A stretch of DNA of 64,000 nt from Minisyncoccota bacterium (GTDB lineage: Bacteria > Patescibacteriota > Minisyncoccia > UBA6257 > 2-01-FULL-56-20): NCBI GenBank assembly GCA_022843285.1, contig JALHNY010000005.1, forward strand, positions 10,315 to 74,314. The letters run 5' to 3'. Below, piece by piece: positions 24,783-27,182 of this stretch (the first letter of the stretch is position 1; each line of letters starts with the position of its first letter). A model generated the notes under the pieces. The model was not told where the DNA came from and searched no databases. It was given only the letters and a program-made list of their open reading frames with translations. Both the position numbers and the translations under genes were made by a program.

Positions 24783-27182
24783 TTAATGGGCGGGGTAATT
24801 TATTCGCATCTTCGGCGCGACCCAGCAGGCGCGGCAGTGCGAGCCGCCGAACGGGTTCGGGCTCGAGGTGCAGCTCTTCAGCTGGAGCTGGCTCTTGTCG
24901 ACCTGCGCGTACGTCGGGCACATCCAGTCGAAGTGCGTCTTCTCCGCGGCGGTCGCGCGGAAGTCCTTCCGACCGAGCGCTTCTTCCTTGCTCTGCATGT
25001 ACAGCGAGCTGGAACCGAGCGCGTTGCCCGGCGAGAGCGCGCCAGGGGCCGGGTCGTCGAAATTGAATGCGCTGGCGCGCACCATGAAGTTGTCGGCCTT
25101 CATCTTCGGCAGCTGCTCACGCCAGAACTCGTCCCAGCCGGTGGTCGCCCACGTGCGCGTCGGTGCCCAGAAGCGAACACGCTTGCCGACGTCGCCGCCG
25201 GCCGTGTGCAGCTTGTCGGCGATGTCCATCCACGCCTGCGCGTAGCGCGTCGAGAAGAAGTCGCCGCTCGAGTGCAGGCGAATCGGGAGGATGTTGCCCG
25301 GCGCGTTCGCGGGGAACGAGAGCTTCAAGATGCTCTCGAACATGGCGTCGACGAAGGCGTCGTAGTGGTTGCTCACCATGCCCACGGCCCACCAGTACCG
25401 GAGCGTGAGGCGTGCTGCGTTGTCGGCGTACGCGTACGAGCCGCCCTCGGCGTAGCAGTTGTGAATGACGAGCCCGTTCGCGAGGAACTGGTGTTCATCT
25501 CCGACGTTCAGCAGGTCGTAGACTGCCTCCACCTTTCTCGTTGGGGTGACGGCGTCGACGACCATGCGAGTCGTGCGGCCTTGACGATGTGCTTGAGCCG
25601 CGAAAGCTTCGTTGAGGAGCTTCGACTTTCGCTCGTTGAAGAAGCCGATGACCTCGGCAAATCGTCGAACTGAATCGATGGACTTGATGCCGAGCTTCCA
25701 CAACGGCGAGTACCCACGCTCAGCGTTGCTCCGGTATTCAGTGAAGCTGGTTTGAATTCCGAACGCCATCAGCAGCTGTTGCACTTCTTCGATGAGTGGG
25801 CGGCTGGTGTTGGTGAACGAAATCTCCACAGCTCCAGAGCTCACGCCGACAGAGCCGTCGGTGGAGAACAACCCCGAAAGGTACCCCGCGACGCCACGCT
25901 CGGAAGCGCTCCAGATTCCTCGGGGCGTCGTCGTGTGCGTGCCGCGCTTTTCAAGACCGAGCTGGGTGAAGAGGTGCGTGAGCCCTTTGACCCGCCAGTG
26001 GAGGTGTGCGTGAGGGGAACTGGTTTCAACCATCCCCGAAGGGTCAGCGCGACGAATGAGAACTTCGCTCTCAGAACCGGTCCAGGCGGACACGACCTTC
26101 GCAAGACGCCGCAGGTCATCAGCGTCATGTTCAGCTGCGACCAACGACGCGGTGGGGTACTTCGTAGCCGTGTAGAACGAGCCGTCCCCGACCATGTACC
26201 CCAGGAGCACGCCGAGTTCGAACGACCACTCCGCTGGCAGCTCTCCACGCTTCTCAGTTCGGTAGGCCGGTCCGAGGTCAGCATCTCTTAGGTGGGTCGA
26301 TGCTTCCCGAGGGAAGGGTGCGGTTGGAGGGAGCGCATACGGAAGAGCGTCACCCTGCTGAAGGTCTTGAACTTCGACCCAGCCGTCGGTGGTTGAGACC
26401 CGATGGTCTGCGGTTGCTCGCAGCGTGATGCCGTTGCGAGTTTCGAGCAGGAAGGTGGGCTTCATGCCTTGTTCGACGACTTGGGTCTCACGCCAGTCGA
26501 CGCCTGACCAGACTTTGAAGCGGCGACCGAGCATCTCGTCGATGCGTCGAAGGCCTTCTCCCTGAACCATGAGGAGCGTGTCGCCCGGAACGCAGGACTG
26601 GCAGATGCTGCGCTGCGGGTCCGAGGGCACCGACGTCTGCTTGAGCGCTCCGGCGGGGAGGTCGAGCGACGGCGCACCCATCTGCACGAGGCGCTGCTCT
26701 GCGGCGCGCCGAGGACCTTCGGGCACGATGCTCTGTCCTGCGGTCGCGCCGGGGCACGTGCCACCGACGACGGACGCGCCTGCGGGCAGGTCGAACACCG
26801 GGCAGTCCATCTTCGAGTTGTCGAGGCTCCACACCTTCACGGTGTGCACGACTGAGCCGCCGCGGCTCCAGGGGAGCGCGTCCTGCGGGAAGACGGGGCG
26901 CGGCTTGCGGGGGTCGCCATCGGTGCGCGGGCTCTTCGTGAGCCGCAGCTGCAGCGTCTGCCCGTCCCACTCGTGGCGGAAGGTGCATTGCGCGAGGAAC
27001 TGCTCCACGGCTGCCCGGACCCAGTGCGTACGTGAGAGTGAAGCGTGCGTGTTGGCGAGCGGCGGCGGGCCGTTCTTGAGCGCGCCCAGACCGAGCAGCT
27101 GACCGAGCGACGAGCCCGACAGCTCGGGACCGTCGTCTTCGAACTCGCCGGTGCGCTCGACGTTGCCAGTCACTGCAGCCAT
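24783..27182 (-). CDS. intein-containing protein with an unknown Cys-rich extein
   Basis: 799 aa. The extein parts total about 420 aa and carry CQSC at the splice site and a C-terminal Cys cluster. Confidence 0.65.
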   Translation of the reverse strand: MAAVTGNVERTGEFEDDGPELSGSSLGQLLGLGALKNGPPPLANTHASLSRTHWVRAAVEQFLAQCTFRHEWDGQTLQLRLTKSPRTDGDPRKPRPVFPQDALPWSRGGSVVHTVKVWSLDNSKMDCPVFDLPAGASVVGGTCPGATAGQSIVPEGPRRAAEQRLVQMGAPSLDLPAGALKQTSVPSDPQRSICQSCVPGDTLLMVQGEGLRRIDEMLGRRFKVWSGVDWRETQVVEQGMKPTFLLETRNGITLRATADHRVSTTDGWVEVQDLQQGDALPYALPPTAPFPREASTHLRDADLGPAYRTEKRGELPAEWSFELGVLLGYMVGDGSFYTATKYPTASLVAAEHDADDLRRLAKVVSAWTGSESEVLIRRADPSGMVETSSPHAHLHWRVKGLTHLFTQLGLEKRGTHTTTPRGIWSASERGVAGYLSGLFSTDGSVGVSSGAVEISFTNTSRPLIEEVQQLLMAFGIQTSFTEYRSNAERGYSPLWKLGIKSIDSVRRFAEVIGFFNERKSKLLNEAFAAQAHRQGRTTRMVVDAVTPTRKVEAVYDLLNVGDEHQFLANGLVIHNCYAEGGSYAYADNAARLTLRYWWAVGMVSNHYDAFVDAMFESILKLSFPANAPGNILPIRLHSSGDFFSTRYAQAWMDIADKLHTAGGDVGKRVRFWAPTRTWATTGWDEFWREQLPKMKADNFMVRASAFNFDDPAPGALSPGNALGSSSLYMQSKEEALGRKDFRATAAEKTHFDWMCPTYAQVDKSQLQLKSCTSSPNPFGGSHCRACWVAPKMRINYPAH
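25458..26594 (-). mobile_element. intein with a LAGLIDADG homing endonuclease (residues 197-575 of the host protein)
   Basis: N-terminal splicing block CVPGDTLLMV. Two LAGLIDADG motifs: LLGYMVGDGS and GYLSGLFSTDGS. C-terminal block FLANGLVIHN followed by Cys +1. Confidence 0.65.

Follow-up and report, generated by a model that had tools for sequence, protein, structure and literature searches.

The part of the window (the whole stretch of 64,000 nucleotides that was analysed) considered here carries a long precursor gene followed by a series of smaller genes, all on the same strand:

24783..27182, minus strand: precursor gene, 799 aa, GP88-family extein plus intein (ORF list, translation; Pfam GP88, Intein_splicing, LAGLIDADG_3)
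24784..24804, minus strand: recoded 3' end of the GP88 gene (window against contigs L086 and L087)
24269..24782, minus strand: 514-nt segment with a free-standing HNH gene (Pfam, PHROG, allele comparison)
24282-24779, minus strand: ORF of this gene, here HNH1, 165 aa, HNH_3 with a C-terminal HTH (Pfam, PHROG)
23837..24268, minus strand: Cys-rich partner ORF, 143 aa, conserved (alignments A2, A4)
22315..22947, minus strand: HNH_3 endonuclease gene, here HNH2, 210 aa (Pfam, PHROG)
21560..22303, minus strand: phage-type DNA methyltransferase-like gene, 247 aa (phrog_757 at 2e-56)

About 40 other ORFs of the window mostly found no match in the PHROG and Pfam scans. The 799-aa ORF ends with a stop codon at 24783-24785, and its start ATG, separated by a single nucleotide from the stop of the upstream gene, opens an N-terminus (MAAVT) that is common to its homologues. 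Its parts are the following:

26595..27182, minus strand: N-extein, residues 1-196 (alignment A1)
26733-26765, minus strand: GGTCPGATAGQ of the N-extein, with the invariant Cys143
26595-26609, minus strand: SICQS of the N-extein, with Cys194 at position -3 relative to the intein
25458..26594, minus strand: class-1 intein, 379 aa, residues 197-575 (assigned on splicing blocks, Pfam, NCBIfam and conservation)
26307-26594, minus strand: N-splicing part of the intein
25560-26306, minus strand: LAGLIDADG endonuclease domain of the intein
25458-25559, minus strand: C-splicing part of the intein
24786..25457, minus strand: C-extein, 224 aa, residues 576-799 (alignment A1)
25455-25457, minus strand: Cys+1, first C-extein residue, which is the invariant Cys197 of the ligated CxxCYA
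25251-25283, minus strand: RLHSSGDFFS of the C-extein
25146-25172, minus strand: FWAPTRTWA of the C-extein
24822-24920, minus strand: four-Cys cluster of the C-extein

The original prediction placed a complete intein at residues 197-575 of this ORF, with a CVPGDT block, two LAGLIDADG motifs and HN followed by Cys+1. All of these elements were found, and the boundaries agree with the splicing blocks. Block A (CVPGDTLLMV, residues 197-206) starts with Cys1, invariant in 30 same-site inteins, and block B carries the TxxH motif as TADH (residues 257-260), with a His that is also invariant in the same-site alignment. Blocks F/G read VYDLLNVGDEHQFLANGLVIHN, with the penultimate His and terminal Asn in place and Cys+1 directly behind. 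In the 30 same-site inteins the conserved positions include Cys1, the His of block B, block F and the terminal Asn. The two LAGLIDADG motifs, LGVLLGYMVGDGSF (26175-26216) and VAGYLSGLFSTDGSV (25848-25892), both retain their acidic residue (Asp), and their conservation reaches 80% or more in the 23 same-site inteins of full length. The Pfam matches exceed their curated cut-offs (Intein_splicing, PF14890, 42.2 bits against 35.8; LAGLIDADG_3, PF14528, 69.1 bits against 22.5); in NCBIfam, the intein matches the models of intein-containing DnaB, RtcB, RNR, GyrA and RecA, and scores slightly under the threshold of TIGR01445, intein_Nterm (21.7 against 24.5). Its base composition is also distinct, with a GC3 of 0.70 versus 0.87 and 0.92 for the exteins. 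The same 799-aa protein, identical, is found on contigs of several sequencing runs, and the frame is open through both exteins. A contig of a Myxococcales MAG carries the nearest relative that has been binned. A Hint or bacterial intein-like domain lacking the +1 nucleophile was considered and ruled out because His-Asn followed by Cys is present. Judged on its sequence blocks, the ORF is thus confirmed to carry a canonical class-1 intein with a LAGLIDADG endonuclease domain inside one host protein, and this intein would be expected to splice and its nuclease to cut DNA. As an element it is of an ordinary kind; the insight that it provides is into the family of its host.

That the two extein halves could belong to separate proteins is ruled out by 38 homologues without an intein, about 400 aa long (386-463 aa) and colinear across the junction over 100% of the ligated sequence. 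The ligated product has 420 aa, very much the length originally estimated, and one of the homologues (P0001) is 61% identical to it over 100% of its length. Alignment A1, composed of 39 sequences, has C143, C194, C197 and Y198 invariant (between Cys143 and Cys194 there is a variable loop), as are, in extein numbering, C376, C392, C404 and C407 and a C-terminal His. The cluster of four cysteines noticed earlier near the C-terminus is therefore real. The CQSC reported at the insertion site is there as well, although in the precursor its second Cys is the intein's own Cys1 and does not belong to the extein; from the sequence, Cys+1 would take its place upon splicing and restore C-Q-S-C-Y-A.

The host could not at first be assigned to any of the usual intein hosts, and its family can now be named. 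The ligated extein scores 70.4 bits on Pfam GP88 (PF17338), whose cut-off is 24.4 (E 2.6e-19, positions 27-208 of the 230 of the HMM), and by this profile it is a member of GP88, a family without known function. All 39 aligned relatives match the profile too. Along the same lines, the only named fold matches in BFVD at E<=0.001 are "Gene product 88" proteins; three others are nameless in the UniProt tables. The family is large, with 2,503 representative clusters at E<=1e-3, and includes short forms in which the three cysteines are kept compactly as CPxxxxC(x2-3)CYA. Megablast of positions 21000-29000 and tblastn of the extein found no match among GenBank phages, a profile search of the sequences of solved structures with the extein alignment gave nothing at E<=10, and NCBIfam had no model matching the extein, the 143-aa partner or the neighbours. 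Literature searches found no functional study of PF17338, GP88, DUF5131 or TcmP.

A glimpse of what GP88 might do is provided by DUF5131 (PF07505, the phage Gp37/Gp68 proteins), listed as a radical-SAM subgroup beside spore photoproduct lyase (PMC9477430). When run against the GP88 model, six true DUF5131 proteins gave matches of about 140 residues (E 2.5e-6 to 6e-5), and four of these passed the GP88 cut-off. A DUF5131 protein also hits TIGR04471 (radical SAM mobile pair protein A) with an E-value of 4e-10. The best matches in a search with the AlphaFold model were likewise radical-SAM enzymes, even if weak. Since the GP88 model recognises DUF5131 proteins and the AlphaFold matches point the same way, the most likely identity of the extein is that of a divergent Fe-S enzyme, radical-SAM-like and sister to DUF5131, that would carry out Fe-S and SAM chemistry. 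The two families have in common the three-Cys motif with CxxCYA, a strand with S-x-(S/G)-D-(F/L)-F behind it, and the distribution in phages. The GP88 long forms differ from DUF5131 in having an additional N-terminal domain, a loop of 15-130 aa, the C-terminal four-Cys cluster and the terminal His. One phage contig (L004) encodes proteins of both families, so they are not interchangeable. None of the 39 long-form members matches PF07505 at E<=10, and matches are found in the reverse direction only, which argues for GP88 as a related family and not a member of DUF5131. We claim no membership also because profile-profile comparison of the two families with hhalign, whether the variable loop and the N-terminal domain were kept or removed, did not reach significance (probability 2%, P=0.024), being colinear only at CxxCYA and where RLHSSGDFF meets FVNSMSDLFH.

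Several results speak against this reading. None of the 39 long-form members matches Pfam Radical_SAM (PF04055) at E<=10, and the cysteines of the extein are spaced C-x50-C-x2-C, followed by Tyr, versus the canonical CX3CX2C. The first two are separated by the loop that varies from 15 to 130 aa within the long-form clade; in the short forms the spacing is C-x4-7-C-x2-3-C. No SAM-binding motif could be assigned with confidence in the extein. A different metal-binding TIM-barrel-like enzyme (using zinc, for example), possibly engaged in attack on the cell wall or lysis and with cysteines of structural role, is an alternative that we regard as unlikely. The radical-SAM-like reading of the extein is also the one towards which the insertion sites of the inteins, together with the DUF5131 link, point, and it provides the first functional clue for GP88.

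The codons into which inteins home are the most conserved ones, critical for function, and their location within GP88 is informative for this reason. Among the best 150 representatives of the family at 50% identity, 32 (about 21%) contain inteins, 35 in total because some have two, and about four fifths have none. Three insertion sites are used, each directly N-terminal of a conserved cysteine (C127, C197 and C376), and three independent sites of this type indicate that these cysteines belong to the functional core. As first suggested, the extein may be an essential catalytic protein. A homologous intein occupies the same site as that of the window in 29 other proteins. The intein of P0129 is 71.5% identical to ours while the exteins share just 43.8%. 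GP88 thus appears as a new and unusually heavily colonised intein host in which full-length and mini forms are found side by side, and this heavy colonisation makes it a good natural system in which to study the homing cycle. Seven of the same-site elements are mini-inteins without endonuclease domain, another (P0207) is partly eroded, and yet another (P0237) ends in Phe-Asp rather than His-Asn, so decay does occur in the lineage. It would be highly improbable, all the same, that the element of the window is itself a decaying relic, either a pseudogene dead for splicing or an intein with an inactive endonuclease that has lost homing. Its catalytic positions (Cys1, TxxH, block F, His-Asn and Cys+1) are all intact, and a relic would not sit well with both LAGLIDADG aspartates retained, an open frame and an identical protein recovered in several runs.

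A regulatory role of the intein deserves to be considered together with its position. MoaA is a radical-SAM enzyme. In the MoaA intein of Pyrococcus abyssi a native disulfide between Cys-3 and Cys1 controls splicing (PMC3922620, PMC10663303), and the Ssp DnaE intein has been trapped by an engineered Cys-3 (PMC3922620, PMC10663303). In our case, Cys194 at -3 and Cys1 form a CxxC whose disulfide could block splicing under oxidising conditions, so that an oxygen-sensitive enzyme would be assembled in a reducing cell only. A Cys is indeed found at -3 in 29 of the 30 same-site inteins, so that nearly all of them have the geometry of the MoaA case by construction. However, this Cys follows from the CxxC motif of the host, and its presence is no sign of selection for regulation. 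Most GP88 representatives do without any intein, and the combination of intact homing endonuclease and foreign base composition in the window marks a selfish, recent element. Co-option as a redox switch is, on balance, quite doubtful, and we prefer to see the intein as a homing element.

The second mobile component of the locus is independent of the intein. HNH1 matches HNH_3 (PF13392) with 41.1 bits against a cut-off of 24.8, and phrog_1872 at 1.9e-24. Metagenomic contigs that are otherwise identical and do not have HNH1 show 7 nt in place of the 514-nt segment (in L086 the junction reads CGC ATC AAC TAC CCG GCG CAC TGA GGACACC ATG); the gene is present in the window, L089 and L091 and absent from L086/L090, L087 and L093. 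Compared with the HNH-less allele, the last 21 bp of GP88 carry seven silent changes, six at synonymous third positions plus the replacement of TGA by TAA, and upstream of this tract there are no mismatches over 3,229 bp (L086) and 5,378 bp (L087). The recoded end is a putative target or co-conversion tract of HNH1. The presence/absence polymorphism and the clustering of silent changes are the footprint of a homing endonuclease, and, together with a foreign GC3 (0.72), they characterise HNH1 as what is, by its allele pattern, a live mobile element, recently inserted and unconnected with the intein. Invasion by a homing endonuclease, together with recoding of the target, can be seen here cleanly in phage populations that have not been cultured.

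HNH2 behaves differently. Both ORFs predicted to be HNH endonucleases, at 22315 and 24282, match Pfam HNH_3, but HNH2 is found at the same position in every close relative seen (L086, L089, L090 and, as a homologue, L088), and none of these relatives, L088 included at about 70-80% nucleotide identity, is without it. Its GC3 of 0.89 is native-like, and its conservation with L088 (79.5% nucleotide identity) exceeds that of GP88, which flanks it (about 70%). These features of HNH2 speak for the alternative that the HNH genes serve the phage, for instance by helping the terminase to package DNA. For HNH1, the polymorphism, silent-change cluster and foreign composition speak against this possibility, and the terminase-like ORF of the window (47850-48764) adjoins neither gene; a working role is on the whole rather unlikely, and homing remains our interpretation of HNH1. 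The methyltransferase-like gene predicted nearby is indeed a DNA methyltransferase by its PHROG match (it has no Pfam or NCBIfam match), and is an ordinary phage-type gene. A functional coupling to GP88 was rejected because its position is not conserved; syntenic relatives carry a VanY, glycosyltransferase or Radical_SAM gene in its place. The hotspot of selfish elements originally proposed is directly supported for HNH1, by its polymorphic alleles and silent changes; the case for HNH2 is circumstantial and the methyltransferase is not shown to be mobile.

The ORF that does accompany GP88 is the Cys-rich partner. Its HMM matches directly downstream of GP88 in L001-L008, L086 and L088-L091, and five of its cysteines (C61, C89, C116, C118 and C134) are invariant in alignments A2 and A4. 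Searches that included Pfam, PHROG and NCBIfam assigned it to no family or fold and gave it no name. The GP88 enzyme probably works with this partner.

Taken together, we consider it quite probable that the locus is explained as a whole by the precursor of a GP88 phage enzyme, with a homing intein within a radical-SAM-like extein, and by an independent insertion of HNH1. The intein lies between Ser196 and the invariant Cys197 and thereby splits the C...CxxC-Y-A motif, and the mature 420-aa enzyme would exist only after splicing has joined ...ICQS to CYAEGG.... The LAGLIDADG endonuclease, acting on DNA, would spread the intein by homing into empty GP88 alleles. In the mature protein, Cys143, Cys194 and Cys197 may form the cluster site of an Fe-S enzyme, and the C-terminal four-Cys site may bind a second metal. 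HNH1, for its part, has recently entered the space between GP88 and the partner gene, recoding the last GP88 codons. A much more speculative view, to which we give little credence, is that long-form GP88 and its Cys-rich partner are an unrecognised and widespread phage system of radical-SAM type acting on a macromolecular substrate, intein-gated and redox-trapped. If this were true, maturation would be gated in a fifth of the lineages by inteins on a cluster-ligand Cys, and the Cys-3/Cys1 trap would restrict assembly of the oxygen-labile enzyme to host cells that are reducing.

Several known systems resemble parts of this locus. As far as the accounts of it go, the Pyrococcus abyssi MoaA intein (Callahan et al. 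2011; PMC3922620, PMC10663303) is likewise class-1, with an Fe-S host, as GP88 is predicted to be, and an extein Cys-3/Cys1 CxxC, but its host is the MoaA of an archaeon and not the GP88 of a phage; the intein of the window, unlike that of MoaA, retains a full LAGLIDADG endonuclease, and redox control is described for the MoaA intein. Precedents for inteins in radical-SAM proteins are found in two NCBI models, NF038136 (Rv2578c-family) and NF045703 (tetraether synthase Tes), whose intein parts are weakly matched by our intein while their exteins are unrelated in sequence to ours. The inteins of mycobacteriophages and actinobacteriophages (PMC5050341; bioRxiv 10.1101/2025.01.02.630785) are similarly placed at active-site motifs and come as a mix of full-length and mini forms. 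The hosts given by Kelley et al. 2016 are terminases, RecB-like proteins, RDF, nucleotidyltransferase, methylases, TOPRIM, portal, ThyX, helicase and one hypothetical protein (PMC5050341); gp88 and radical SAM are absent from that list and from the text of the 2025 survey (bioRxiv 10.1101/2025.01.02.630785). HNH1 has its counterparts in the free-standing phage HNH homing genes (e.g., mobE, located between nrdA and nrdB of T4), which are also intergenic, polymorphic for presence and absence and flanked by co-conversion. Finally, doubly invaded genes are exemplified by the RNR of SPbeta, with an intron and an intein, and the GP88 of the window is likewise both invaded by an intein and flanked by an HNH gene, the target being here, unlike in the mobE and SPbeta RNR cases, GP88.

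The 799-aa ORF carries, as originally predicted, a complete intein. Its splicing blocks comprise block A (CVPGDTLLMV, carrying Cys1), block B (T-A-D-H) and blocks F and G (VYDLLNVGDEHQFLANGLVIHN), the last followed by Cys+1, and both LAGLIDADG motifs keep their Asp (LGVLLGYMVGDGSF and VAGYLSGLFSTDGSV). The precursor exceeds the Pfam cut-offs for Intein_splicing (42.2 bits vs. 35.8) and LAGLIDADG_3 (69.1 bits vs. 22.5), and the intein matches the intein parts of the NCBIfam models for intein-containing DnaB, RtcB, RNR, GyrA and RecA. Residues 197-575 are thus confirmed to show all features of a class-1 intein. 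The start codon (ATG at 27182) has GGAGAG ahead of it and lies 1 nt past the stop of the preceding gene; this start is sound, since homologues begin with the same MAAVT. The genes of this region are as follows.

24783-27182, minus strand: intein-bearing precursor ORF, 799 aa (translation)
25458-26594, minus strand: intein, residues 197-575 (class-1 splicing blocks and Pfam)
24282-24779, minus strand: first HNH endonuclease ORF, HNH1 (HNH_3 domain)
23837-24268, minus strand: Cys-rich partner ORF, 143 aa (alignment with relatives)
22315-22947, minus strand: second HNH endonuclease ORF, HNH2 (HNH_3 domain)

In order to identify the host protein, we used the 420-aa extein, with the intein removed in silico, as query. 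Most of its 140 relatives are intein-less proteins of ~400 aa whose matches span 100% of the query (P0001, the top match, has 417 aa and is 61% identical). When 38 of these were aligned with the ligated extein (39 sequences), the intein-less proteins ran uninterrupted through the splice junction, a colinearity that excludes the two halves being separate proteins. The ligated extein belongs to Pfam GP88 (PF17338; 70.4 bits vs. a cut-off of 24.4), a model matched by all 39 aligned members, and among predicted viral structures its only named significant matches are 'Gene product 88' proteins. No function has been described for this family, and our literature searches found no paper on it. Invariant in the alignment (numbering after splicing) are C143 (within GGTCPGA), Q150, C194, C197 and Y198 (TICxxCYA), R256, H258, G261, D262 and F263 (RLHSSGDFF), W293, A294, P295 and R297 (FWAPTRTWA), R323, S325, the cysteines C376, C392, C404 and C407, and the C-terminal His420. 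C143 and C194 are separated by a loop whose length varies from 15 to 130 aa among relatives. Viral contigs also encode short GP88 forms of 200-270 aa, which hold the same three cysteines in a compact arrangement (e.g., TCPFAGSCFKLCYA and SCPRASGTICENCYA), together with RIHDSGDFYS, FYAYTK and the terminal His.

The long forms start with a near-invariant pentapeptide, MAA(V/I)T (27168-27182 in the window), followed by a variable acidic linker, and all GP88 proteins, short forms included, terminate exactly at the invariant His (24786-24788). Both ends look functional, for example as a targeting tag and as an active-site or metal ligand, respectively. A GP88-like core (extein residues ~144-297, 25-30% identity) was also seen in many chromosomes of Pseudonocardiaceae (Amycolatopsis, Lentzea, Prauserella), sometimes in two copies per genome, so the family is not confined to phages.

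A pointer to function came from the contig of one GP88 relative (L004), which also encodes a DUF5131 protein (L004:479-1195, minus strand) ~6 kb from the long-form GP88; the presence of both on one phage contig indicates that the two related families are not redundant. DUF5131 is listed as a subgroup of the radical-SAM superfamily, in a megacluster shared with spore photoproduct lyase (PMC9477430), and a DUF5131 protein gave a hit at 4e-10 to TIGR04471 ('radical SAM mobile pair protein A'). Starting from the L004 protein, six bona fide members of DUF5131 were collected; all match the Pfam GP88 model over ~140 residues (E 2.5e-6 to 6e-5), and four exceed its cut-off. The Pfam models Radical_SAM and DUF5131 matched none of the GP88 long forms (39 aligned members), and the profile-profile comparison of GP88 with DUF5131 was not significant, though colinear at CxxCYA and RLHSSGDFF/FVNSMSDLFH. 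On these grounds the extein is not assigned to either family. With moderate support, we infer that it works like an Fe-S enzyme of a divergent radical-SAM type, with DUF5131 as a related family.

The intein sits between Ser196 and the invariant Cys197, and Cys+1 is the third cysteine of the motif. With this placement no intact C...CxxC-Y site is possible in the precursor, and from the anatomy splicing alone would regenerate it. Cys194 of the precursor (position -3) forms a CxxC with Cys1 of the intein, the same geometry as in the Pyrococcus abyssi MoaA intein, in which a native Cys-3/Cys1 disulfide controls splicing (PMC3922620; PMC10663303). The cysteine at -3, found in 29 of the 30 inteins at this site, is there because the host motif supplies the CxxC; redox control of the window intein is possible, not implied.

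In an exhaustive profile search, 2,503 representative clusters matched GP88 at E<=1e-3. Of the top 150, 34 were matched in two or three pieces, and reading of the sequences identified 35 inteins in 32 of the 34 representatives. With those of the window and of P0002, the closest intein-bearing relative, the total is 37. They occupy three sites (a slash marks the insertion).

Site a, before C127 (KMx/CP): 3 inteins
Site b, before C197, the site of the window: 30 inteins
Site c, before C376 (DWx/C): 4 inteins

Three proteins (P0143, P0187 and P0241) hold two full-length LAGLIDADG inteins each, at sites a and b or b and c. At site b, seven inteins, that of P0002 among them, lack the endonuclease domain and are mini-inteins of only 134-147 aa. 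The inteins of the window and P0129 are 71.5% identical against 43.8% for the exteins, and GC3 is 0.70 in the window intein and 0.87 and 0.92 in the exteins. This identity gap and the intein GC3 are consistent with horizontal transfer through homing and later decay of the endonuclease. The P0237 intein ends in Phe-Asp rather than His-Asn, and that of P0158 is shifted by one residue (Cys at -2, Cys-Cys at +1/+2).

The surroundings had been predicted to be a hotspot of selfish elements, a view that held for HNH1 and is circumstantial for HNH2. In relatives, down to ~32% extein identity, GP88 is followed directly 3', within a few nt, by a homologue of the partner ORF; in the window HNH1 separates the two. 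Among metagenomic contigs whose 799-aa protein is identical, L089 and L091 carry HNH1, like the window, and L086/L090, L087 and L093 lack it. Upstream, the window has no mismatch to L086 and L087 over 3,229 and 5,378 bp, respectively; the final 21 bp of the GP88 ORF (24784-24804) differ from both by seven substitutions (six synonymous third positions and one TGA to TAA), and beyond them 514 nt of the window replace 7 nt. The GC3 of HNH1 (0.72) is foreign. This polymorphism and recoding are most probably the trace left by a free-standing homing endonuclease gene, whose flanks were co-converted and so became resistant to cleavage. HNH2, on the other hand, occurs in every relative seen, and its composition is native-like. 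It shares 79.5% nucleotide identity with its counterpart in L088 (3029-3656), where the flanking GP88 gene shares ~69-71%, and is thus conserved better than its neighbours. The methyltransferase-like gene (phrog_757, 2e-56) has no conserved position among syntenic relatives; in L088, a mini-intein relative, its place right after the HNH2 homologue is occupied by a 536-aa Pfam Radical_SAM protein (3681-5291, minus strand). The partner itself has five invariant cysteines (C61, C89, C116, C118 and C134), a basic tail, few homologues and a modest predicted model. Searches for a family, a name or a fold gave no match to it; it may serve as a substrate, an electron carrier or a subunit.

The window as a whole looks like a novel phage of a poorly charted lineage. 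Most of the ~40 ORFs scanned against Pfam and PHROG gave no family match, and GenBank phages gave none to the region or the extein. Besides a SNF2 helicase, a DUF3987 protein and a PD-(D/E)XK nuclease, we identified the following.

60621-62933: family-A DNA polymerase, PolA
56874-58700: DEAD-type helicase
55273-55357: one tRNA-Tyr
53175-54050: AAA_24/Sak4-like ATPase
50302-51453: RNA ligase
49408-50205: sigma-factor-like protein
47850-48764: HerA/terminase-like ATPase

The nearest binned extein relative (47% identity) belongs to a Myxococcales MAG, where its contig measures 36 kb; this is a weak hint at a host in this group. Upstream of GP88, a transglutaminase-core gene (28990-29754) adjoins a 608-aa gene (29754-31580, minus strand) whose product weakly matches GNAT acetyltransferases at residues 88-148 and has a C-terminal RadC-like JAB domain (475-596); L003 and L087 show the same order. 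A short plus-strand block (20466-21669), overlapping minus-strand ORFs in an otherwise minus-strand region, may be a small regulatory cassette; its putative ORF 20466-20891 contains a CHRHY motif and weakly matches ribbon-helix-helix proteins.

Inteins are already known from phage proteins and from radical-SAM hosts (MoaA, and the NCBIfam Rv2578c-family and Tes models), and free-standing HNH genes are a known kind as well. The 2016 list of mycobacteriophage intein hosts lacks GP88, and the 2025 survey of actinobacteriophages does not mention it. What is new with respect to these systems is GP88 as an intein host family, its intein density and the functional pointer thereby given, which brings directly testable biochemistry, as well as the clean snapshot of the HNH1 invasion.
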